A stretch of DNA of 64,000 bases from Chloroflexota bacterium (GCA_003171255.1 PMYK01000023.1:113945-177944), one strand, 5' to 3'; positions 17,759-53,116 are shown, counted from the first letter of the stretch. Numbers and translations: made by a program. The notes: a model not told the origin generated them from the letters alone.

Positions 17759-19144
17759 GTGCCCGCCAAGATGCCCAGTCCAGCTCACCGTGCCGGCGCC
17801 GTCGGGGCCAAGAGCAGACCCGTGGCCCCGGTTGACCCCGTGCCCCCATTCGACGCCGAGCGCAAGCTGCTCGAGCTGTCGTTCCTGCACGAGTTCGCCA
17901 AGCTTCTGACCACGGCCAGAAACTGGGACGAGTTGATGCGGACGATCGTCGACCGCACTACCGACGCCTTGAACGTCGAGGTCTGCTCCGTCTACCTGAT
18001 GGATCGCGACGCGGCGCGGCTGCGACTGTCCGCGACTAACGGCCTCGACCGCGACCAGATCGGGGTCGTCACGCTGGCCGTCGGCGAGGGCCTGACGGGC
18101 AGCGCGGCGCAGATCGGTCAGCCGATCGCCTCGCCCGACGTGCGGGTCGATCCGCGGTTCAAGTGGGTTCCGGGTTTCGACCAGTCGCAGTTCGTGTCGA
18201 TGCTTTCGGTGCCAATGCCCTGGAACGACTCGATCATCGGCGTCATCAACGTCCAGGCCATCGAGTCGCGGACGTTCTCGCCAGAAGAGGTCGAGTTCCT
18301 GGTCACCATTGGGGCGCTGCTCGGCGGCATCGTCGAGAAGGGCCGTCTCCAGGCCGAGGCCGAGGAGCAGCTCGAAACCCTCACAGCCCTCGACGGCGCC
18401 CGGGCCGAGCTGCTGGCCGTGGTCACCCACGAGCTGCGCACGCCGCTGGCGGTCGTCCGCGCCTACCTGGACCTGCTCGCCGATGCCGCGGTCGAAGCCG
18501 CCGGGGGTTCGACACCCAAACCGGAGCTCGTCGAGGAATGGCGGATCCAGGCAATCGCCCAGGTCACGCGGCTGGATCGGCTTGTCGACTCGATCCTCGC
18601 TTCCGTCCGCGGCGACGGTCTTGCCGCCGGTCTAGCCCGCGTTCCGTTCGACCTCGCCCGCGCCGTCAACGACACGATCGGCGAGATGACGCCGCTGCTG
18701 CGCGGCCACCCGCTCCGCCGCACCGGCACCTGGGAAGCGCTGATGGGTATCGGTGACGAAGGCCGCTTCCGCCAGGTTCTCGAGCATCTCCTCGAGAACG
18801 AGGTCAAGTATTCGCCGGAGGGCGGCTCGGTCAGCGTCGGGACGATGCGGTCCGGGGGCGAGATCCAGATCTACGTCACCGACGACGGACCGGGCATTCC
18901 CGAGCCCGAGTGGGAGTCGGTCTTCGAGGCCTACGTACGAACGGCCCATCGTCCGCGGGGCTCCGGAATCGGTCTCTACGCCGCTCGACGGCTCATGAGC
19001 GCGATGGGCGGACGTGTCTGGTTGGAACCAAATGGGTACGGCGGCAGTCGATTCGTGGTGGCCGTGCCCGAGATGCGCCACACTGAAGGCGACACGACCG
19101 GTCCAGAGGCGGGCGTGATGTCCGAGGCGGGCCCGGAAGGGTAG
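17759..19144 (+). CDS. GAF-domain sensor histidine kinase
   Basis: GAF domain (VYLMDRD..GEGLTGSAAQ..), HisKA H-box VTHELRTPL and HATPase_c motifs (DDGPGIP, GSGIGL). Confidence 0.8.
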   Translation: MPAKMPSPAHRAGAVGAKSRPVAPVDPVPPFDAERKLLELSFLHEFAKLLTTARNWDELMRTIVDRTTDALNVEVCSVYLMDRDAARLRLSATNGLDRDQIGVVTLAVGEGLTGSAAQIGQPIASPDVRVDPRFKWVPGFDQSQFVSMLSVPMPWNDSIIGVINVQAIESRTFSPEEVEFLVTIGALLGGIVEKGRLQAEAEEQLETLTALDGARAELLAVVTHELRTPLAVVRAYLDLLADAAVEAAGGSTPKPELVEEWRIQAIAQVTRLDRLVDSILASVRGDGLAAGLARVPFDLARAVNDTIGEMTPLLRGHPLRRTGTWEALMGIGDEGRFRQVLEHLLENEVKYSPEGGSVSVGTMRSGGEIQIYVTDDGPGIPEPEWESVFEAYVRTAHRPRGSGIGLYAARRLMSAMGGRVWLEPNGYGGSRFVVAVPEMRHTEGDTTGPEAGVMSEAGPEG

Positions 19145-19174
19145 CCGGTCGGCTAGGCTGAGCGGAGGCGTCGA

Positions 19175-19885
19175 GTGAGCGGTATCGGTCCCGGGGAGAC
19201 GAGCCTGCTGGTGCTGGTCGTCGATGACGAGCCGGCGATGGTCGGCGCCGTCTCGGCCCTGGTCGGCCGCGCCGGCCACCGCGTCGTCACCGCGTACGAC
19301 GGCAACACCGCCCTGCGCCGCTTCAGCGAGGAGCGTCCGGATCTCGTGCTGCTCGACCTGGCCATGCCGGGGCTCGACGGCGTCGAAGTCTGTCGCGCGA
19401 TCCGCCGCATGTCGCAGACCCCGATCATCGTCCTGACCGGCGAGGCCGACGAGCGAGCCAAGGTCGAAGCGCTCGACACCGGCGCCGACGACTACGTGGT
19501 CAAGCCATTCGGCAAGCAGGAATTGCTCGCCCGCATCCGCGCCGTCATGCGCCGCCGGGGCAACGAAGCCGAGCCACACGGCGTCGGCGAGCTGCGCTGG
19601 GGCCCGATCGTCCTCGACCGCGGCCGCCACACCGCGGCGGTGTCGGACCGCGAGATCATCCTGACCCGCACCGAATACAGCCTGTTGGCGTCGCTGGTCG
19701 CCGCCGCCGGCCACGTGGTCTCGCATTCCACGCTGCTCTCCGCGGGCTGGCCCGGCGAGCCCAACCCCGACCCGCAGTGGCTCAAGCCCCACCTCGCCCG
19801 CCTCCGCTCCAAGCTCCAAGCGGCCGGCGCCCCCGTCCCCGCCTCCGTCCGCGGCGTCGGCTACCGCCTCGAGGGCGGCGAGTAG
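19175..19885 (+). CDS. OmpR-family response regulator (receiver + winged-helix DNA-binding domain)
   Basis: Receiver motifs VLVVDDE ... LVLLDLAMPGLDG ... KPF; C-terminal trans_reg_C domain (RGVGYRL); cognate with the upstream kinase. Confidence 0.8.
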   Translation: MSGIGPGETSLLVLVVDDEPAMVGAVSALVGRAGHRVVTAYDGNTALRRFSEERPDLVLLDLAMPGLDGVEVCRAIRRMSQTPIIVLTGEADERAKVEALDTGADDYVVKPFGKQELLARIRAVMRRRGNEAEPHGVGELRWGPIVLDRGRHTAAVSDREIILTRTEYSLLASLVAAAGHVVSHSTLLSAGWPGEPNPDPQWLKPHLARLRSKLQAAGAPVPASVRGVGYRLEGGE

Positions 19886-20390: not shown

Positions 20391-21797
20391 GTGCCATGGG
20401 AGCGGCGTGTGGACGCGCTTGATCTCGCGCGGTGGCAGTTCGGTATCACCACCGTCTACCACTTCCTGTTCGTGCCGCTCACGATCTCGCTGGTCTTCAT
20501 CGTTGCGGGGTTCCAGACGGCCTGGTATCGAACGGGCAACGACAAGTACCTGAAGCTGACTCACTTCTACGGCGAGCTGTTCCTGATCAACTTCGCCATC
20601 GGCGTGGCCACGGGCATCGTCCAGGAGTTCCAGTTCGGCATGAACTGGAGCGACTACAGCCGGTTCGTCGGCGACATATTCGGGGCACCGCTGGCGATCG
20701 AGGGCCTGCTCGCCTTCTTCCTCGAATCGACATTCCTGGGCATCTGGATATTCGGCTGGGACAAGCTGCCCAAACGCGTCCACCTGGCCGCGATCTGGAT
20801 CGTCGCCATCGGGACGCTGCTGTCTGCCTACTTCATCCTGGCGGCCAACGCGTGGATGCAGCAGCCGGTCGGCTCCATCGTCAACACCGCCGCGGGCCGG
20901 GCCGAGCTCAAGGACTTCGGAGCCGTCCTGACCAACCCGACCGTTCTGCTCGGCTTCCCGCACGTCATCGCCGGCGCGTTCATGACCGGCGGCGCCTTCG
21001 TGCTCGGCGTTGCCGTATGGCGGCTTCTGCGCCGGGCCGGCGCGGACGACGCGCCCTTCCGAACCGCTGCCAGAGTGGGCGCCACGGCGCTGCTGGTGGG
21101 CGGGCTCTTCGTCCTGGTCACAGGCGATCAGTTGGGCCAGCATATTGCGACCGATCAGCCGATGAAGCTCGCCGCGGCCGAGAACCTGCGCACCACCGAG
21201 ACGTCGGCGCCGTTCTCCCTCTTCACGCTCTGGGACCTAAGCGGCAAGGAGATCGTTTCGATCCAGATCCCCGACATGCTCTCAATCCTGGCCACCCATG
21301 ACCCCAACGGCCAGGTCCAGGGCATCGACAATCTGCAGGCCCAATTCCAGGCCCAGTACGGCCCCGGCGACTACTCGCCCATCGTCCCCGTCACGTTCTG
21401 GTCGTTCAGATTCATGATCGGCGCGGGAAGCCTGGCGGCGCTCGCCGCGCTTTGGTTCTTGTGGCGGATGCGCAAGGGCCGGGTGCCCGGTCGAGGCGCG
21501 GTGGCAATCGCCGTCGTCCTGCCGCTGCTGCCCCTTGCCGCGAACTCGTTCGCCTGGATCTTCACCGAGATGGGGCGTCAGCCGTGGATCGTCTACGGCC
21601 AGCAGCTCACCTCCGCCGGTGTCTCGCCGAGCGTCAGCTCGCTCGAGGTGGCGGTCACGCTGGTCGGCTTCACGCTCCTCTACGGCGGACTGGCCGTGGT
21701 GGAAGTCGGGCTGCTGTTGAAGCGGATCCGAGGCCCGCTCGCGGCGGAGGGCGCCCTTGCCGACTCGGCCCAAACCTCCACCCCCTTCTCTTACTGA
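20391..21797 (+). CDS. cydA: Cytochrome bd ubiquinol oxidase subunit I
   Basis: Clear CydA homology (LDLARWQFGITTVYHFLFVPLTI, GVATGIVQEFQFGMNW, Q-loop, WIVYGQ); start ambiguous: GTG 20391 abuts GGAGGA with zero spacing, while GTG 20409 gives an N-terminus the same length as E. coli CydA. Confidence 0.85.
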   Translation: MPWERRVDALDLARWQFGITTVYHFLFVPLTISLVFIVAGFQTAWYRTGNDKYLKLTHFYGELFLINFAIGVATGIVQEFQFGMNWSDYSRFVGDIFGAPLAIEGLLAFFLESTFLGIWIFGWDKLPKRVHLAAIWIVAIGTLLSAYFILAANAWMQQPVGSIVNTAAGRAELKDFGAVLTNPTVLLGFPHVIAGAFMTGGAFVLGVAVWRLLRRAGADDAPFRTAARVGATALLVGGLFVLVTGDQLGQHIATDQPMKLAAAENLRTTETSAPFSLFTLWDLSGKEIVSIQIPDMLSILATHDPNGQVQGIDNLQAQFQAQYGPGDYSPIVPVTFWSFRFMIGAGSLAALAALWFLWRMRKGRVPGRGAVAIAVVLPLLPLAANSFAWIFTEMGRQPWIVYGQQLTSAGVSPSVSSLEVAVTLVGFTLLYGGLAVVEVGLLLKRIRGPLAAEGALADSAQTSTPFSY

Positions 21798-21807
21798 GGA
21801 GACGGCC

Positions 21808-22851
21808 ATGCTGCATGACATCTGGTTCCTGCTCATCGCCGTCCTGTGGATCGGCTACTTCGTCCTGGAGGGCTTCGACTTCGGGCTGGGGATGCTGCTG
21901 CCCTTCCTCGGCCGGAACGACGGTGAACGCCGCGCCCTGATCAACGCCATCGGACCGGTCTGGGACGGCAACGAAGTGTGGGTCCTGGTGGCCGGCGGGG
22001 CGACCTTCGCGGCCTTCCCGAACTGGTATGCCACGCTCTTCTCCGGGTTCTATATGGCGTTGTTCCTGATCGTCGTGGCGCTGATCCTGCGCGGCGTCGC
22101 ATTCGAGTACCGCAGCAAACGCGACAGCGCCCGCTGGCGCCTGGGCTGGGATTGGGCGATCTTCATCGGATCGGCCGTGCCGGCCCTGCTGTGGGGAGTG
22201 GCCTTCGCCAACATCGTGGGCGGCGTCCCGATCGACGCCCACAAGGAGTTCACGGGCAATCTGTTGACGCTGCTCAACCCCTACGGGCTGCTCGGCGGCG
22301 TCGTCACGCTGACGCTCTTCATGACTCACGGGGCCGCCTACATCGCCCTCAAGACGGAGGGCGAGCTGCGAGCGCGGGCCAATCGGCTGCTCGTCTCGAT
22401 AGGCCTGGTGGCGGCCCTCGCGGCGGTCGTGTTCCTGGGCTGGACGCAGCTGTCCAGCGTCGTCGCCGACTCGGCGGTCGTATCCGTCGTCGCGGCCGTG
22501 GCGCTCCTCGGGGCGCTGGCAGCCAACCGGCTCGGACGCGAGGGCTGGGCGTTCATCGCGACGGCGGCCACGATCGCTCTGGCGGTCACGGCGCTCTTCA
22601 TGCACCTCTACCCGAACGTGATGCCTTCGTCGACGAACCCGGCCTTCAGCCTGACGGTCAACAACGCCGCTTCCACGGACTACACGCTGGCGATCATGAC
22701 TGTCGTGGCGGTGATCTTCATGCCGCTCGTCCTGCTCTACCAGGGCTGGACCTACTGGATCTTCCGCAAGCGAGTCTCGGCCGACCGCGTCCCGGACGTT
22801 GCGGCGCCCGCCGCGCCTGCTGGGCCCGCCGCGCCCCCAGCCGCGAACTGA
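21808..22851 (+). CDS. cydB: Cytochrome bd ubiquinol oxidase subunit II
   Basis: ATG 21808 with GAGGAG 6 nt upstream, 10 nt after the cydA stop; CydB-like hydrophobic profile and conserved N-terminal block; Pro/Ala-rich C-terminal tail. Confidence 0.85.
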   Translation: MLHDIWFLLIAVLWIGYFVLEGFDFGLGMLLPFLGRNDGERRALINAIGPVWDGNEVWVLVAGGATFAAFPNWYATLFSGFYMALFLIVVALILRGVAFEYRSKRDSARWRLGWDWAIFIGSAVPALLWGVAFANIVGGVPIDAHKEFTGNLLTLLNPYGLLGGVVTLTLFMTHGAAYIALKTEGELRARANRLLVSIGLVAALAAVVFLGWTQLSSVVADSAVVSVVAAVALLGALAANRLGREGWAFIATAATIALAVTALFMHLYPNVMPSSTNPAFSLTVNNAASTDYTLAIMTVVAVIFMPLVLLYQGWTYWIFRKRVSADRVPDVAAPAAPAGPAAPPAAN

Positions 22852-23076
22852 GGGCGGTCAACTGAGGCCGGTCCGCTGAGGGCCATCGACCCTCGGCTTC
22901 TGCGGTATGCGCGTGCCACGGCCGTCGCGCTGGCGGCGGCGATAGCACTTGGCCTGGCCACGGCCGCTCTGGCGGTCGCCCAGGCGTGGCTGCTGGCTAC
23001 TGCCATCAGTTCGGCATTCCTGGCGGGCGCGGACTTCGACGCGCTGCGGGCCACCCTGGCGGCACTGGCAGTCGTC

Positions 23077-24546
23077 TTGGCAGGCCGGGCGGCGATCTCG
23101 TGGGCCCAGGAGTCGGTGGCGCGGCGCTGCTCGGCGGCCGTGAAGTCGAGCCTGCGGATGCGGCTGCTCCGTTCGGCGGCGGCGCTGTCGCCGGTACGGG
23201 CGGGCGCCCCGCCGACCGGCGAGATCGTGGCCCTCGCCACCCACGGCCTCGACGCCCTGGACGCCTACTTCGCGCGATACCTGCCCCAGCTCGTCCTGGC
23301 CGCGATCGTACCGCTCGTCGTGATCGCCTGTCTGGCGGCGGTAGATCTGGTGGCTACTTTGACGGTTGCGCTGACGGTGCCGCTCATTCCGCTGTTCATG
23401 GTGCTCATCGGATCGGCCACGGAACGGCGCCGACGGCGGCGCTGGGCTGCCCTGGCGCGGCTCTCGGGCCACTTCCTCGACATCGTCGCGGGTTTGCCGA
23501 CGCTCCGGGTCTTCGGTCGAGCGGCGGCGCAGCTGGGCCGGTTGGAGAAGGTCACCGACGACTACCGCCGCGAGAGCATGGCCACGCTCCGAGTGGCATT
23601 CCTCTCCGCTTTCGCGCTTGAGCTGGCCGCCACGCTCTCGGTCGCGCTGGTGGCGGTCGGCGTGGCGCTGCGGCTCGTCGACGGGGGGATGGAGCTTCGC
23701 ACCGGCCTGTTCGTTCTGATTCTGGCGCCCGAGGCCTACCTGCCGCTGCGCCAGCTGGGCGCCAGCTTCCACGCCGCCGAGGAGGGGCTGGGGGCGGCCG
23801 ACCGGGTCTTCAGGATCATCGAAGCGGGCGACGTGGCCGCGGGCCCGGCGGGCGACGGCGAGCTCCTACCGGACCTTCGCGGCGCCGAGCTGCGAGTCGA
23901 AGGCGTAACGGTTCGGCAACCGGGGCGGGGCCTGGAGGCGCCGTTCGAGGCTTCGCTCGTCGTCGGTCCGGGCGAGGTGGTGGCGATCTCCGGTCCGAGC
24001 GGCGCCGGCAAGAGCACGCTCGTCGAGGTGCTGCTGGGACTTCGGTCCGCGGACGCCGGTCAGGTGGCGCTCGCCACCGCGGGCGGTGAGCTGGTGCCTC
24101 TCACGACTCTCGATCGGGAGGCCTGGCACCGCCGTGTGGCCTGGGTCCCGCAGCATCCGTTCTGCTTTGCCGGCAGCGTCGCCGAGAATGTCCGGCTGGC
24201 GGCGCCCGACGCTTCGGACGCGGCCGTGGACGAGGTCATGGCGGCGGTCGGCCTGCCCGACCTGGACCGCCAGACGCTCCTGGCTGAGGGGGGCGCCGGC
24301 CTCTCCTCCGGCCAGCGCCGCCGGCTTGGAGTGGCTCGGGCCCTTCTCAAGGGCGGCGATTTCGTGCTCCTCGACGAGCCAACGGCCGGGCTCGACGCCG
24401 CATCCGAGGCCACGGTCCTGGCGGCGATTAGCGCCGCTGCCCACACCCATGGCCGGGCCGTCCTAGTGGTGACCCATCGCCGGGCCGCCCTCGAGATCGC
24501 CGATCGCGTGGTGTCGATCGAGTCTCGTTCGGGAGCGCTCGAATGA
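23077..24546 (+). CDS. cydD: Thiol reductant ABC exporter subunit CydD (permease/ATPase); annotated from the first canonical in-frame start, but homology extends upstream to about 22861
   Basis: Exporter TM domain plus Walker A GPSGAGKST, LSSGQRRRLGVAR and LLDEPTAGLD; about 70 conserved N-terminal residues (RLLRYARATAVALAAAIALG...) lie upstream of TTG 23077 in the same frame with no ATG/GTG/TTG back to the cydB TGA. Confidence 0.7.
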   Translation: MAGRAAISWAQESVARRCSAAVKSSLRMRLLRSAAALSPVRAGAPPTGEIVALATHGLDALDAYFARYLPQLVLAAIVPLVVIACLAAVDLVATLTVALTVPLIPLFMVLIGSATERRRRRRWAALARLSGHFLDIVAGLPTLRVFGRAAAQLGRLEKVTDDYRRESMATLRVAFLSAFALELAATLSVALVAVGVALRLVDGGMELRTGLFVLILAPEAYLPLRQLGASFHAAEEGLGAADRVFRIIEAGDVAAGPAGDGELLPDLRGAELRVEGVTVRQPGRGLEAPFEASLVVGPGEVVAISGPSGAGKSTLVEVLLGLRSADAGQVALATAGGELVPLTTLDREAWHRRVAWVPQHPFCFAGSVAENVRLAAPDASDAAVDEVMAAVGLPDLDRQTLLAEGGAGLSSGQRRRLGVARALLKGGDFVLLDEPTAGLDAASEATVLAAISAAAHTHGRAVLVVTHRRAALEIADRVVSIESRSGALE

Positions 24547-26219
24547 GCGGCCCTATCGCCCTGTGGCGCATCGCCTCGATCGGCCGGCCGGTAACTGGCC
24601 GGATGCTGCTGGCCGTGGCCGCGGGCGTGGCCGCGGCCGGCGCCGCGATCGGGCTGACCGCCACTTCGGCCTGGCTCATCTCGCGGGCTGCCGAGCGGCC
24701 GCCGGTTCTGTACCTCATGGTCGCTGTGACTGGGGTCCGGGCCTTTGGCGTGAGCCGCGGCGCCCTTCGCTACGCCGAGCGACTGGCCAGCCACGACGCC
24801 GCCTTCCGCGTCCTGTCGCGGCTCCGCAGCCGAGCCTACGCCCGACTCGAGGTCCTCGCCCCGGCTGGCCTGGCCGAGTTCCGTTCGGGCGATCTGCTGT
24901 CTCGACTCGTCGACGACGTGGACGGCCTGGCCGACCTGTGGCTGCGAGTGCTGCTCCCCTATCTCATCGCCGGCATTGCCGCCGGCGTCGCCGTGGCGGC
25001 TATCTGGCTGCTGGTTCCGGCCGCAGCGGCCGCCCTCGGCGCCTCGGTGCTTTTCGTGGCTTTCGTCGTTCCGGTGTTCACCGTGACCGTGGCGCGTCGG
25101 GGCGAGCGGCGTATCTCCGGCGCCCGCGGCGAACTGGCCGCGGCCACGCTCGACGTCCTCGAGGGAGCGCCCGAGATGCTCGTTGCCGGAGCCACGGAAG
25201 CGCGCCTGGTCGAGCTTGCCTCGATCGACGAGTCGCTCGCGGTGGCCGAGTCACGGACCGCGGCGGGTGCCGGGCTCGGGGCCCTGCTCTCCGGACTCGC
25301 GAGCGGCGCCGCCGTCTGGCTCGGACTCGTTGCCGGCATCGCCGCCCTCCGTGCCGGAGCCATCGAGGGCGTGGCTCTGGCCGTGGTCGCTCTCACACCG
25401 ATCGCCGTGCACGAGGCCGTGGCCGGGCTCGTGCCCGCATCTCAGCACCTGCCGGGTCTGGCGGCGATGGCCGGACGGCTGCTCGACGTGATCTCGCGGC
25501 CGGATCCGGTGCGCGAACCGGATCAGGAAGAGGCAGAGTCGCTGCCGCAGGGGCCGTACGGGCTCCGCTGCCGGGGTCTGCGGGCTCGTTACGTCGCCAC
25601 AGGCCCCGACGCCCTGATCCTGCCGGGCGTCGATCTACAGCCCGGTGGGCGGCTGCTGGTGACCGGCCCGAGTGGTTCGGGCAAGAGCACCTTCGCGGCC
25701 GTGCTGGTCCGGTTCCTCGAGCCGTCGGCCGGTTCGGTCGAGCTTGTGGGCCCCGATCGGTCGGTCGACATCCGCCGGCTCGCGGGCGACGACGTGCGGC
25801 GCGTGATCTGTCTGTGCGCCCAGGACCCGCACATCTTCGACACGTCGGTCGCCGAGAACGTCCGCCTGGCCAGGCCCGGGGCGACGGACGACGAGGTGAG
25901 CGCCGCCCTGTCCGCCGCTCAGCTGGCGCCGTGGATCGGCTCGCTGCCGGACGGGCTGGCGACACTCGTCGGCGAGCATGGGGCGCGCCTATCGGGCGGG
26001 CAGCGGCAGCGCCTTTCGCTGGCCCGGGCGCTCCTGGCCGACGCCCCGATCATCGTCTTCGACGAGCCAACCGAGCATCTCGACGACGCGACCGCCTCGG
26101 CCCTGACGGCCGACCTTCTGACCGCCACTGCCGGCCGGACGATCGTGATGATCACCCACCGCCCCGAGCTGATCGACTCGGCGACGTGGGCGGCACGGAT
26201 CGACCTGGGGTCGGCTTGA
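24543..26219 (+). CDS. cydC: Thiol reductant ABC exporter subunit CydC
   Basis: ATGA overlap with the cydD stop; exporter TM domain; Walker [23 protein letters not shown] and Walker B IIVFDEPTEHLD. Confidence 0.8.
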   Translation: MSGPIALWRIASIGRPVTGRMLLAVAAGVAAAGAAIGLTATSAWLISRAAERPPVLYLMVAVTGVRAFGVSRGALRYAERLASHDAAFRVLSRLRSRAYARLEVLAPAGLAEFRSGDLLSRLVDDVDGLADLWLRVLLPYLIAGIAAGVAVAAIWLLVPAAAAALGASVLFVAFVVPVFTVTVARRGERRISGARGELAAATLDVLEGAPEMLVAGATEARLVELASIDESLAVAESRTAAGAGLGALLSGLASGAAVWLGLVAGIAALRAGAIEGVALAVVALTPIAVHEAVAGLVPASQHLPGLAAMAGRLLDVISRPDPVREPDQEEAESLPQGPYGLRCRGLRARYVATGPDALILPGVDLQPGGRLLVTGPSGSGKSTFAAVLVRFLEPSAGSVELVGPDRSVDIRRLAGDDVRRVICLCAQDPHIFDTSVAENVRLARPGATDDEVSAALSAAQLAPWIGSLPDGLATLVGEHGARLSGGQRQRLSLARALLADAPIIVFDEPTEHLDDATASALTADLLTATAGRTIVMITHRPELIDSATWAARIDLGSA

Positions 26220-26280
26220 AGCGAGGATCACGACGGACGAATCGGGGTGGCGGACCGCCCGTAGTCCACGAACTCCCCCG

Positions 26281-26320
26281 ACAAACAACAACCCGCGCTA
26301 CCTGCCGAAAGGTGCGCGGG
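26281..26320 (-). terminator. Candidate intrinsic terminator for the minus-strand small-ORF transcript
   Basis: 7-bp GC stem CCCGCGC/GCGCGGG (26292-26320) followed on the minus strand by UUGUUGUUUGU; about 85 nt downstream of the small ORF's stop. Confidence 0.4.
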
Positions 26321-26406
26321 TCGATGTTGGAGAGGGAGGAGCTAGTGTGAGGAGCGGGTTGGCCTAAGCCTCTGAGTCAGAAGTGACCGCAAACTGCCAG
26401 GTCGTT

Positions 26407-26490
26407 CTACTCGGCCGCGTGGGCGCGAGACGGGGCGACGAACCAGCCAACCACCAGAACTCCGAAACTGATGAATGCTGCTGCGATCAT
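26407..26490 (-). CDS. Small ORF encoding a 27-aa hydrophobic single-TM peptide (MIAAAFISFGVLVVGWFVAPSRAHAAE)
   Basis: ATG at 26490 with GAAGGAG 7 nt upstream; TAG stop at 26407-26409; sits 78 nt downstream of a copy of the conserved amt promoter module and has its own downstream hairpin/U-tract; below the 60-aa cut-off of the ORF track. Confidence 0.4.
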   Translation of the reverse strand: MIAAAFISFGVLVVGWFVAPSRAHAAE

Positions 26491-26567
26491 TTCTTGGCTC
26501 CTTCGGCTGAACCACTGGGATTTGCATCCCGTTCAATATCTGGAAGTCTATAGAACGAGTCGGCGCA

Positions 26568-26632
26568 AATCAGTAGCGCGCCGGTGGACCATCGGTAGCG
26601 CTGGGGTAGCGTCAGGGTTGCCGTTCGGTACG
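26568..26632 (-). promoter_or_regulatory. Copy 1 of a conserved upstream module: AATCAGTA plus four GGTNNC hexamers at 11-bp spacing (GlnR-box-like a-b-a-b operator)
   Basis: GGTGGA 26583, GGTAGC 26594, GGTAGC 26605, GGTTGC 26616; module ends 78 nt upstream of the small ORF's ATG. Confidence 0.45.
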
Positions 26633-26682
26633 AAACGGCCGTCCCGGACCGGCGGGCGACCCGCGCGGCCGGCGGCACGCCG

Positions 26683-27906
26683 CTACGACTGGTAGACGAC
26701 CGTCTCGCCGTGTTGCGAGGCGTCCAGGCCGGCCTCTTCCTCGGACTCCTCCACACGGAGCCCGACGAACGCGCCCACCACCTTGAGAATGATCAGCGTC
26801 GCCAGCGCGCTGTAGATCCAGACTGCGGCGATGGCCACGAGCTGCGTCCCAACCTGGCCGACATTGCCGTCGATCAGGCCCTTGGCCCCGCCAATGGTCG
26901 CAACCGCGAGAACGCCTGTCAGGAAGACTCCCAACGTTCCGCCCACGCCGTGGACCGCCCAGACGTCGAGCGCGTCGTCGATCTCGAGGCGCTGGCGCAG
27001 CAGGATCGCGCCGTAGCAGACCACTCCGGCGATGAAGCCGATGACGATGGCCGAACTCGGATCGACGAACCCGGAGGCTGGCGTGATCCCGACCTCTCCG
27101 GCAATGGCGCCCGACACCGCACCGATGACCGACGGCGAACCTTTGTGCAGCCAGCTCATGGTCAGCCATGTCAGTGCGCCCATTCCGGCGGCGGTGTTGG
27201 TGACCAGGACGGCGTTGACCGCGTGGCCGTCGGCGGCCAGGGCCGAGCCGCCGTTGAAGCCGAACCAGCCGAACCACAGGATGCCCGCCCCGATGACTGT
27301 CAGGCGTACGTCGTGGGGCTCGAAACGATCCGACTCGCGGCGAACCCGCGGACCGAGCACGAGGGCGGCCACCAGGGCGGCAACGCCGGAGCTGATGTGG
27401 ACGACGGTGCCGCCGGCGTAGTCGAGGACGCCCATGTTCTTGAGCCAGCCGCCATCACCCCAGACCCAGTGGCAGATCGGCGAGTAGACGAGCAGGCTCC
27501 ACAGCAGGGCGAACAGCACGAAGGCTTTGAAGCGCTTGCGCTCGGCGAAGGCGCCGATGATCAGGGCGGGCGTGATGATCGCGAACATCATCTGGAAGAG
27601 CGCGAAGGCCGCGGACGGGATCGTCTTGGCGTAGGGGCCCGGGTCCGAACCGATCCCCTTGAGGCCGATGTTGTCCAGGTTGCCGATGATGCCCCAGCCG
27701 TTGAAGTCCTTGCCGAAGGCCAGGGTGTAGCCGACCAGGACCCACGTCACGCTGACCAGGGCCAGGATGAACATGCACTGCATGAGGATGCTGAGCACGT
27801 TCTTGCGGCGGACGAGGCCACCGTAGAAGAGGGCCAGGCCGGGCGTCATCAACATGACGAGCGCCGTGGCGGTCAGTATCCAGGCGGTGTCGCCACCATT
27901 GATCAC
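26683..27906 (-). CDS. amt: Ammonium transporter (Amt/MEP family)
   Basis: Amt family throughout (DTAWILTATALVMLMTPGLALFYGGLVRRKN, GAFAERKRF, HGVGGTLG); GTG 27906 has GAAGGAG 8 nt upstream and gives an N-terminus colinear with the paralog; the ORF-track TTG at 27936 is probably an over-extension. Confidence 0.85.
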   Translation of the reverse strand: MINGGDTAWILTATALVMLMTPGLALFYGGLVRRKNVLSILMQCMFILALVSVTWVLVGYTLAFGKDFNGWGIIGNLDNIGLKGIGSDPGPYAKTIPSAAFALFQMMFAIITPALIIGAFAERKRFKAFVLFALLWSLLVYSPICHWVWGDGGWLKNMGVLDYAGGTVVHISSGVAALVAALVLGPRVRRESDRFEPHDVRLTVIGAGILWFGWFGFNGGSALAADGHAVNAVLVTNTAAGMGALTWLTMSWLHKGSPSVIGAVSGAIAGEVGITPASGFVDPSSAIVIGFIAGVVCYGAILLRQRLEIDDALDVWAVHGVGGTLGVFLTGVLAVATIGGAKGLIDGNVGQVGTQLVAIAAVWIYSALATLIILKVVGAFVGLRVEESEEEAGLDASQHGETVVYQS

Positions 27907-27990
27907 GCTCGGGACTCCTTCGCTTCCAACTCGCAACGAAACCCGGTCTTAGGTTTCGGTTTGGCGAAGCGTACGGAGCCACGCGGCGCG

Positions 27991-28055
27991 AATCAGTAAC
28001 GACCGGGTAGCCGTCCGGTAGCGCCTGGGTGGCGGGAGGGTTGCCCTTCGGGACG
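27991..28055 (-). promoter_or_regulatory. Copy 2 of the conserved module (AATCAGTA plus four GGTNNC hexamers at 11-bp phase) upstream of amt
   Basis: GGTAGC 28006, GGTAGC 28017, GGTGGC 28028, GGTTGC 28039; 85 nt upstream of the amt GTG; a perfect 7-bp hairpin CGAAACC/GGTTTCG lies between module and SD. Confidence 0.45.
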
Positions 28056-29491: not shown

Positions 29492-29556
29492 AATCAGTAG
29501 CCGCCGGGTGACCCCAGGGTCACAGTCTGGTGGCGCCGGGGTTGCCGTTCAGGACG
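29492..29556 (-). promoter_or_regulatory. Copy 3 of the conserved module upstream of the second amt
   Basis: AATCAGTA 29492; GGTGAC 29507, GGTCAC 29518, GGTGGC 29529, GGTTGC 29540 (11-bp phase); 78 nt upstream of the amt GTG. Confidence 0.45.
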
Positions 29557-29865
29557 GGGTTCGGGCGAGAGTCGCGCTGCGCAACGTGGCTGGTACCAGT
29601 CGGCTACGCACCTAGCTTGCCGACGCCTCCAGCGGCGTGATCCGATGCGGCAGGTCGATGCAGGCGACACGGCAGCCGCGGGCATCGTGGCCGGGCAGGC
29701 CCCAGAAATGGCGCCAGGCTGCGTCTGGGCCGTGCATGCCACCGTCCGCGAGCGACTCACGAGCCGGCAGCCGCAGGCAGCGCAGGTGAGCACGAACGAA
29801 CCCTCGCGGTGCATGGCGCGCGGCGATTCCGACTCCCCCACCGGCTCGAACTCGTGCAGCTTCAT
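29494..29865 (-). CDS. Possible small Cys-rich hypothetical protein (MKLHEFEPVGESESPRAMHREGSFVLTCAACGCRL...); 3' extent uncertain
   Basis: ATG 29865 with GGAGA 5 nt upstream; third-position GC about 85% for the first 75 codons, dropping afterwards where the frame runs through the amt operator module; no family recognised. Confidence 0.25.
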   Translation of the reverse strand: MKLHEFEPVGESESPRAMHREGSFVLTCAACGCRLVSRSRTVACTAQTQPGAISGACPATMPAAAVSPASTCRIGSRRWRRRQARCVADWYQPRCAARLSPEPRPERQPRRHQTVTLGSPGGY

Positions 29866-52238: not shown

Positions 52239-53116
52239 GCGCTGGAGACGAGATGCCAATCACAGCTGTCTATCCTGAACCCGTGCTCCGGCGTGTCGAA
52301 GTGACGGCGCCTCGCGCGGCCGTCCAAGTGGCCGCCAGGCCCGCCGATATCAAGATCGCCACCGAGCATGTCTCGATCAGCTATGGCGATAAGGTTGCCG
52401 TCCGCGACGTGTCGCTCACGGTCCAGGACCGCTCGATCCTGGCCCTCATCGGACCATCCGGCAGCGGCAAGTCCACGTTCCTGCGCTGCTTCAACCGCAT
52501 GAACGACCTGATCCCCGGGGCCAGCGTCAAAGGCGAGGTCTGCCTGGACGGGGAGAACGTAATGGAGGCCGACGTCAGCGTGGTCGAGCTTCGGCGTCGC
52601 GTCGGCATGGTCTTCCAGCGGCCTAACCCGTTCCCGATGTCGATCTACGAGAACGTCGCCTACGGCCCGCGCCGCCGCGGCTTGAACGACCGGCGCAAGC
52701 TCAACGATCTCGTCGAGACCAGCCTGAAACGGGCTGCGCTCTGGGATGAGGTGAAGGACGACCTTCGGCGCAAGTCCGGCCTGGCGCTCTCGGGCGGCCA
52801 GCAGCAGCGGCTCTGCATCGCTCGCGTCCTGGCGACCGATCCTGAAGTGATCCTCATGGACGAGCCGGCCTCCGCCCTGGACCCGGTCTCCACGCTCCGC
52901 ATCGAGGAGTTGATGCGCGAGCTTCGCGAGGCCTACACAATCGTCATCGTTACGCACAATATGCAGCAGGCGGCCCGGGTCAGCGACGTTACCGCCTTCT
53001 TCACGATGGCCGACGACAGGGCCGGGTATCTGGTCGAGGTCGGACCGACCGGCCAGATCTTCACGCGACCCAGCGAGCAGCTTACCGAGGACTACATCTC
53101 CGGGCGGTTCGGATGA
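52235..53116 (+). CDS. pstB: Phosphate ABC transporter ATP-binding protein
   Basis: ATG 52235 (ATGA overlap); Walker [23 protein letters not shown], Walker [12 protein letters not shown]. Confidence 0.9.

Follow-up and report, generated by a model that had tools for sequence, protein, structure and literature searches.

Small single-pass membrane proteins act as modulators of transporters, as seen in the structure of AcrZ with AcrB (PMC7267776) and surveyed in a 2023 review of transporter modulators, in which GlnK/PII is the sole regulator of Amt listed for bacteria (PMC10710835). In Methanosarcina mazei, the 61-residue protein sP36 is described as a cytoplasmic protein that reaches the membrane only after a nitrogen upshift and that bridges GlnK1 to AmtB1 (PMC10714827). 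Here, we describe a 27-codon open reading frame (ORF) on the minus strand of a 64,000-nucleotide (nt) stretch of Chloroflexota DNA (GCA_003171255.1 PMYK01000023.1:113945-177944; hereafter the window), which is situated directly downstream of an ammonium transporter gene (amt) and probably encodes a membrane-integral partner of Amt. Judged by the names on near-identical public proteins, the lineage of the window is the uncultured soil Chloroflexota Candidatus Limnocylindrales.

The predicted peptide resembles KdpF, AcrZ, MgtS and MgtR in its size (fewer than 50 residues), its one transmembrane helix and short polar tail, its encoding beside, or co-regulation with, a transporter, and in having been overlooked by gene callers. 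The likeness to KdpF, a roughly 29-residue peptide encoded in a transporter operon, extends to one of the two gene arrangements described below (type B). The differences are the absence of sequence similarity to these four proteins and of any Pfam match, including to the KdpF family, and the partner, which from synteny would here be the Amt channel. In common with sP36, the peptide would be a small protein made in response to nitrogen limitation that has an ammonium transporter as its target (AmtB1 for sP36); it is set apart by description, being 27 residues long, essentially one hydrophobic helix, bacterial, and from loci without glnK. No membrane-integral small partner of Amt was found in full-text literature searches.

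The small ORF runs from an ATG at position 26490 to a TAG at 26407-26409, and the stop codon of the gene directly upstream, amt2, is separated from the ATG by 193 nt. As the initial annotation had it, the 27-codon frame is preceded by GAAGGAG at good spacing, 7 nt before the ATG; the same motif is used by amt2, and the Shine-Dalgarno sequence of the small ORF is invariant across relatives. Related loci were fetched in two independent ways, through Amt and through peptide patterns. For the Amt route, close homologues of Amt2 (88-100% identity) gave 17 loci (L081-L097), a subset that is unbiased regarding the peptide. The small ORF was present at the same place in 17/17 of these, in nine distinct nucleotide versions, and the ratio of nonsynonymous to synonymous differences (pN/pS) was 0.27 in the proposed frame versus 1.31 and 1.42 in the other forward frames. 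Compared by codon position, the nucleotide sequences of this subset were 87% identical at positions 1 and 2 and 65% identical at position 3. For the peptide route, 241 million metagenome records were scanned with two degenerate peptide patterns only, an exact match to one of them being needed; 171 relatives were confirmed, and 80 loci of these were retained for analysis. Together, the two routes (17 plus 80) yielded about 97 small-ORF loci. They occur in two arrangements: type A, the form seen in the window, stands alone under a promoter of its own, and type B is a longer version of 35-38 residues (for example MEILAFVSFAVLVVAWLVAPSRGNVAVVSHAEDRKAA), the ATG of which lies 16-17 nt past the amt stop codon.

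In the larger sets, type A had a core pN/pS of 0.29 and type B one of 0.11, with 1.3-3.5 in the other forward frames. The antisense frame that has its third positions in common with the ORF gave 0.28-0.45, which is expected of a mirror frame, and an antisense ORF in that frame would begin in the unconserved 3' untranslated region (UTR). The openness of other frames is uninformative here because the DNA is GC-rich. Start codons were ATG in 81 loci, GTG in 15 and TTG in 1, and stop codons TAG in 82, TAA in 13 and TGA in 1. The products had lengths of 26, 27, 29 and 36-39 residues, every length change being a multiple of 3, and the entropy by codon position was 0.84 bits at position 3, as compared to 0.38 and 0.31 at positions 1 and 2. 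Given the frame-specific pN/pS, the substitutions at the first codon that only exchange start codons, the in-frame insertions and deletions and the variation at third positions, the small ORF is almost certainly a protein-coding gene, and its substitution pattern shows it to be under purifying selection. Loss of the reading frame in relatives, which had been proposed as the finding that would speak against a gene, was looked for; frame, start and stop were kept in about 97 loci, with pN/pS values of 0.27-0.29 versus 1.3-1.7. About 50 distinct related loci have kept the ORF along with its ribosome-binding site, promoter module and terminator.

The small ORF is obligatorily syntenic with amt and has its promoter module in common with it. 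The peptide-only scan of the metagenomes was blind to amt, and amt was found upstream on the same strand in 73/73 of the peptide-route loci with enough upstream DNA; the six loci without amt have merely 106-320 nt of upstream sequence. The synteny holds also for two further loci, L002 and L178. In type A, the distance past amt is mostly 173-364 nt, with outliers at 572 and 1600 nt. In type B, the ORF has the Shine-Dalgarno sequence TAAGGAGG, and the clade differs from that of the window in its neighbouring genes and in its Amt, which is only 56-64% identical to Amt2. Directly downstream of one type B small ORF (L168, 2618-2728) a thiamine pyrophosphate (TPP) riboswitch was detected (RF00059, 66.5 bits), which belongs to the unrelated gene that follows. 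When 1.84 billion representative proteins were searched with a profile of the family, only 17 matches were obtained, 14 of them genuine; the most divergent genuine match (P0163, 33 residues), found without reference to amt, lies 20 nt after an amt gene with a product 61% identical. As a control set, 80 distant amt loci from many phyla (50-65% identity to Amt2) were taken from the matches listed in a genome-collection scan, and among these 80 listed loci only L002, a Chloroflexota, contained the small ORF. The proposal that Amt is the obvious partner is strongly supported by gene order, with 73/73 loci and the 16-17 nt spacing of type B; the physical or functional interaction is what we infer from it.

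Residues 2-19 of the peptide are uncharged and hydrophobic and are followed by the tail PSRAHAAE, in which P20-S21-R22 is conserved; the description of a hydrophobic helix with a short charged tail was therefore apt, and the product is, at less than about 50 residues, essentially one transmembrane helix. In 48 distinct peptides F6, F9, L12, V13, W16 and P20 are invariant, and positions 7, 10, 11, 15 and 18 vary. A topology with the N-terminus outside and the C-terminus inside is suggested by the positive-inside rule, since charge is absent from the N-terminus (type B has E2 there) and the residues after the helix include R, H and K. A signal peptide, with AHA-AE as AxA cleavage site, was considered and discarded: the motif is not conserved (AHV, AKV, ANV or AEA in relatives), a positively charged N-region is absent, and only 2 residues would be left after cleavage. 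The peptide had no match in Pfam or NCBIfam (both at E up to 10) or in the PDB. Pfam DUF7186 scored against type B at the level of noise (E = 0.082, 13 bits against a cutoff of 27), and PLD-like proteins grouped in one cluster with the family are unrelated, the grouping being a clustering artefact. Identity with CydX or KdpF was likewise rejected: no family profile matched, the surroundings are free of kdp genes, and relatives have other genes in place of the cydDC neighbour.

That such a gene would be missed by standard gene callers, as the initial annotation expected, is borne out by a collection of 15 billion proteins, from which three 27-residue sequences (that of the window and two close variants) were absent and in which type B occurs solely as 'hypothetical protein'. 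A protein search with a 41-residue in-frame query, which includes 14 residues of the 5'UTR, gave 3 matches only. Where the gene is called, the public calls often start upstream at spurious codons and translate the 5'UTR (for example ...SRRSQDM...), apparently to reach the minimum gene length, as in P0147, P0154, P0155, P0157 and P0160. We take the predicted protein to be the first of a hitherto undescribed family that is restricted to one lineage, the Limnocylindria-type Chloroflexota.

The promoter module of the small ORF consists of GAACGGCAACC and five GCnACC-like hexamers in 11-base-pair (bp) phasing (GCAACC, GCTACC, GCTACC, TCCACC and GCTACT), the last of which runs into TACTGATT. The pattern GGCAACC-...-TACTGATT occurs in exactly three copies in 64 kilobases (kb), with 0 expected by chance for a search pattern that was derived from the three copies themselves; they lie upstream of amt1, amt2 and the small ORF (Table 1), so that the earlier count of a third copy of the amt module was correct. 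Further candidates at 52393 and 63246 were dismissed as chance partial matches without the repeats. At amt1 and amt2, the positions aligned with the putative -10 hexamer of the small ORF read TACCCT and TACGCT, and transcription of the small ORF would start at about 26539-26541. Among 55 distinct type A upstream regions, the module was present in 55/55, with the last hexamer GCTACT in phase in 55/55; the -10 was TAGACT in 42/55 and TAGAGT, TAGGCT, TAAACT or TAGATT in the rest. In these relatives a TAnnnT -10 falls 16-24 nt past the TACTGAT core, and the ATG follows 49-60 nt after the -10 in 54/55. The view of the small ORF as an independent, co-regulated gene for a small membrane protein agrees with this conservation and with three loci (L092, L093 and L115) in which two foreign genes sit between amt2 and the small-ORF unit; the unit is intact 1.6 kb away, which argues that it is autonomous. 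The inserted pair (L092, 4558-5219; also L093 and L115, all of one sublineage) encodes 59 residues with an HTH_3 domain and 161 residues.

The promoter had been called nitrogen-type, of which the association with amt holds; it is not a sigma-54 (NtrC-type) promoter. All three window copies fit GG-N10-GC, yet the first G is C, T or A in relatives, with CCGCAAC, AGCGCAAC and CTGCAAC at the would-be -24 site, so that the GG expected there lacks conservation. OmpR/PhoB-family activators have as their signature direct repeats that are spaced by one helical turn and extend to the -35, as in pho boxes and actinobacterial GlnR boxes, and GlnR boxes lie upstream of amt genes in actinomycetes. With its five hexamers in 11-bp phasing abutting the -35, the module looks like a class II activator site of the OmpR/PhoB family. 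The 11-bp direct repeats reaching the -35, the TAnnnT -10 and the position upstream of amt are features of such sites; the GCnACC consensus and the five-repeat layout are specific to this Chloroflexota lineage. A candidate regulator pair is encoded in the window, comprising a soluble histidine kinase with GAF, HisKA and HATPase domains and an OmpR/PhoB-type response regulator as its partner. The GAF domain of the kinase resembles that of PtsP/EI-Ntr (6.3e-29), and in L088, L089 and L094 the pair directly follows the terminator of the small ORF, between the terminator and argG. A match to Pfam GlnR_1st was weak, its 18 bits falling short of the cutoff of 27; GlnR is an orphan regulator, whereas the candidate here is paired with a GAF kinase. 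Overall, the pair is a candidate nitrogen two-component system that may act on the 11-bp-phased repeats.

The transcript of the small ORF is bounded by two conserved structures. The hairpin in the 5'UTR has 93% of its alignment cells paired, and in 4/5 pairs both partners have changed, with 21 sequences having CG in place of UA; when this explicit structure was scored, 0/500 shuffles reached the observed values. RNAalifold predicted no structure on the 5'UTR alignment, which is attributable to alignment gaps. The stretch TTCAGCCGAAGGAGCC (26491-26515, minus strand) between hairpin and start codon is nearly invariant, and GGUUC and GGAGCC within it may pair, giving a small hairpin in which the Shine-Dalgarno sequence would be occluded; its variation is one-sided only. 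The GC hairpin and U-tract reported after the ORF are those of an intrinsic terminator, CCCGCGC-ACCTTTCGGCAGGTA-GCGCGGG at 26292-26320 with the U-rich, interrupted tail TTGTTGTTTGT at 26281-26291. It folds with -33.4 kcal/mol (z = -5.0; 0/200 shuffles equally stable), is unique within the 64-kb window and was found in 56/59 distinct downstream regions of relatives, 33-105 nt past the stop codon. Two of its 12 pairs have AU to GC compensatory changes. A simple terminator scan missed the hairpin because loop and bulge exceed the scan rules. The transcript as a whole has no structure beyond that of its shuffled versions (z = -1.26), and a pairing of the Shine-Dalgarno sequence with the 3'UTR in the minimum-energy fold of the window was discarded as it is not conserved in relatives. 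The whole window had no Rfam match at gathering thresholds, and 26200-26700 gave only chance-level matches (E of 0.78 or more).

Table 1. Features of the small-ORF locus and associated genes; positions are counted from the first letter of the window.
Feature	Position	Strand	Basis or remark
amt1, ammonium transporter, 412 aa	28176..29414	(-)	TIGR00836 match, 1.4e-143
amt2, ammonium transporter, 407 aa, GTG start	26683..27906	(-)	TIGR00836 match, 5.5e-141
First module copy, upstream of amt1	29492..29546	(-)	Pattern match
Second module copy, upstream of amt2	27991..28045	(-)	Pattern match
Module copy upstream of small ORF	26568-26622	(-)	Pattern match
Putative upstream activator-site module: GAACGGCAACC and five GCnACC-like hexamers, ending in TACTGATT	26568..26626	(-)	Three copies in the window
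Putative -10 hexamer TAGACT (TAnnnT)	26545..26550	(-)	17 nt past module
5'UTR hairpin GGGAT-GCAA-ATCCC	26517..26530	(-)	Covariation
Shine-Dalgarno GAAGGAG, 7 nt before ATG	26498..26504	(-)	Within nearly invariant TTCAGCCGAAGGAGCC
Small ORF, 27 codons and TAG, encoding MIAAAFISFGVLVVGWFVAPSRAHAAE	26407..26490	(-)	Conserved in about 97 loci
3'UTR, 86 nt, sequence poorly conserved	26321..26406	(-)	33-105 nt in relatives, median 87
Intrinsic terminator, GC-rich hairpin of 11-12 bp and T-rich tail	26281..26320	(-)	Folding, conservation
Candidate regulator pair: kinase (17759-19144) and response regulator (19175-19885)	17759..19885	(+)	Pfam and NCBIfam matches

The amt1 and amt2 genes are in tandem, with argH also on the minus strand of the window, and the Amt2 protein was found with identical sequence on 8 public contigs. 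Between argH and the amt1 promoter lies an ORF for 86 residues rich in cysteine (MKLHEYEP...CAACGC...; window 29615-29865, minus strand; L084 736-996), which is conserved in at least 17 related loci and has no Pfam or NCBIfam match; it is split across two frames in the window, which points to a frameshift or a sequencing error here. In the 5'UTR of amt2, between its -10 and Shine-Dalgarno sequence, a hairpin was seen by eye (CGAAACC-taagacc-GGGTTTCG; 27937-27990, minus strand), a parallel to the hairpin in the 5'UTR of the small ORF. On the plus strand, a cydA-cydB-cydD-cydC cluster (20391-26219) converges on the terminator of the small ORF; this adjacency is incidental, as the convergent neighbour differs in relatives.

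We consider it likely that the small ORF encodes a single-pass membrane protein that serves as an accessory or regulatory subunit of Amt. What we infer beyond the gene and its synteny, namely nitrogen control, the identity of the regulator, the topology and the binding to Amt, can be put together as follows. The small ORF would be expressed as its own short transcript of about 260 nt and, having the same activator-site module, would be switched on together with the amt genes, probably by an OmpR/PhoB-type response regulator such as that of the nearby GAF-kinase/regulator pair. Type A peptides would thus be made via the common activator-dependent promoter and type B peptides via the same operon as amt. 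The peptide would insert N-out, C-in, and the invariant helix face comprising A5, F6, F9, L12, V13, W16 and P20 would pack on the transmembrane surface of Amt, thereby placing the P-S-R tail at the cytoplasmic face. It would then stabilise or tune Amt as an accessory subunit, as KdpF, AcrZ and MgtS do for their transporters.

Some observations weigh against this assignment or narrow it. Translation of the ORF, for which the Shine-Dalgarno sequence, the start codons and pN/pS are strong indirect evidence, and an interaction with Amt are predictions from sequence, and no fusion of Amt with the peptide was present among 120 Amt homologues. The conservation profile of the peptide has its maximum at 100 degrees per residue (p about 0.013 by permutation), as expected of a helix packing one face on a conserved partner, and ascertainment affects this statistic in part, the scan patterns themselves enforcing some of the conservation; type B members and L002, which were found by one pattern only or through amt, keep the other half. 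A nitrogen response of the module would follow from its location upstream of amt, which is its sole basis. The RNA may in addition have a role of its own, because the terminator hairpin including its loop and TTCAGCCGAAGGAGCC are more conserved than the tail of the peptide.

The position of the gene also invites comparison with glnK. GlnK is a soluble trimer of about 112 residues, the T-loop of which plugs the channel. Judged by gene order, the small ORF occupies the slot directly downstream of amt that is usually held by glnK, and it would likewise be co-expressed with amt. The distribution of the two is complementary: PII/glnK was found in 0/97 small-ORF loci and nowhere in the 64-kb window, versus glnK directly adjacent to amt in 52/80 of the distant amt loci listed (L001-L080, including Dehalococcoidia), a comparison in favour of the proposed role that ignores phylogeny and is confined to the surroundings of amt. 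In a lineage where amt has lost glnK as a neighbour, the peptide could be imagined as a membrane-embedded substitute for GlnK that docks on the Amt trimer; its conserved cytoplasmic P-S-R tail might gate the channel, or the peptide might link the occupancy of Amt to the soluble PtsP-like GAF kinase. We regard this as unlikely; the peptide differs from GlnK in being a membrane helix with an 8-residue tail, without homology, and a gating role is not part of the sequence evidence. If it were true, Amt and the peptide would form an ammonium sensor feeding the regulator of the common promoter module.

An accessory subunit of Amt also has to be weighed against a small membrane protein of the same regulon with a different partner, for instance the soluble GAF kinase, which it could tether or modulate, or some other membrane protein under nitrogen control. 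Sensor kinases are known targets of small membrane proteins, MgrB and SafA among them, the kinase/regulator pair adjoins the small ORF in several relatives, and by its domain content the kinase is without a membrane segment. The synteny with amt is universal, however (73/73 as well as L002 and L178), and that with the kinase is variable: the pair is 7 kb off in the window and absent from the flanks of the one type B locus studied in detail, in which amt and the small ORF form an operon. We therefore hold another partner to be quite unlikely.

Two further explanations concern the nature of the product itself, and both appear very unlikely to us. A short hydrophobic peptide with a charged tail, behind a stress-type inducible promoter and a structured 5'UTR in which the Shine-Dalgarno sequence can pair with an upstream GGUUC, could be a starvation-induced peptide resembling type I toxins that depolarises the membrane like TisB. 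Such a function is hard to reconcile with type B, in which the ORF shares its transcript with amt, is almost coupled to it in translation and follows the strong Shine-Dalgarno sequence TAAGGAGG. Moreover, each locus has a single copy of the gene, its synteny with amt is strict from clade to clade, the one conserved face of the helix hints at a specific partner, and no conserved antisense unit is evident, as the 3'UTR, where one would be expected, is not conserved. The stand-alone short transcript, its covarying 5' hairpin and a terminator hairpin that is almost invariant including the loop are, on the other hand, typical of small RNAs, and the functional product could be a nitrogen-regulated small RNA of about 260 nt, with the ORF incidental or secondary in a dual-function RNA. 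A purely non-coding RNA is contradicted by the frame-specific pN/pS, the 3-nt periodicity, the start-codon-only substitutions and the in-frame insertions and deletions. Type B keeps the peptide without any separate transcript features, and the z-score of the whole transcript (-1.26) and the lack of an Rfam match likewise speak against a small RNA.

To our knowledge, what is understood of the regulation of prokaryotic Amt/Mep/Rh ammonium channels comes almost wholly from GlnK, the soluble PII protein, and sP36, the one known small-protein player at Amt of which we are aware, also works through GlnK. The small ORF adds a new predicted protein family of the small transmembrane transporter-partner type, with a new putative partner and a position in which it replaces glnK. 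It is an example of a strongly selected gene that was missed by automated annotation. Should binding to Amt hold, the peptide would be the first accessory subunit of an Amt channel that is integral to the membrane, and a new family among the few characterised micro-proteins that modulate transporters. The promoter module together with the GAF-kinase/regulator pair would provide a first handle on nitrogen control in Limnocylindria, which are abundant uncultured Chloroflexota of soil and peat.

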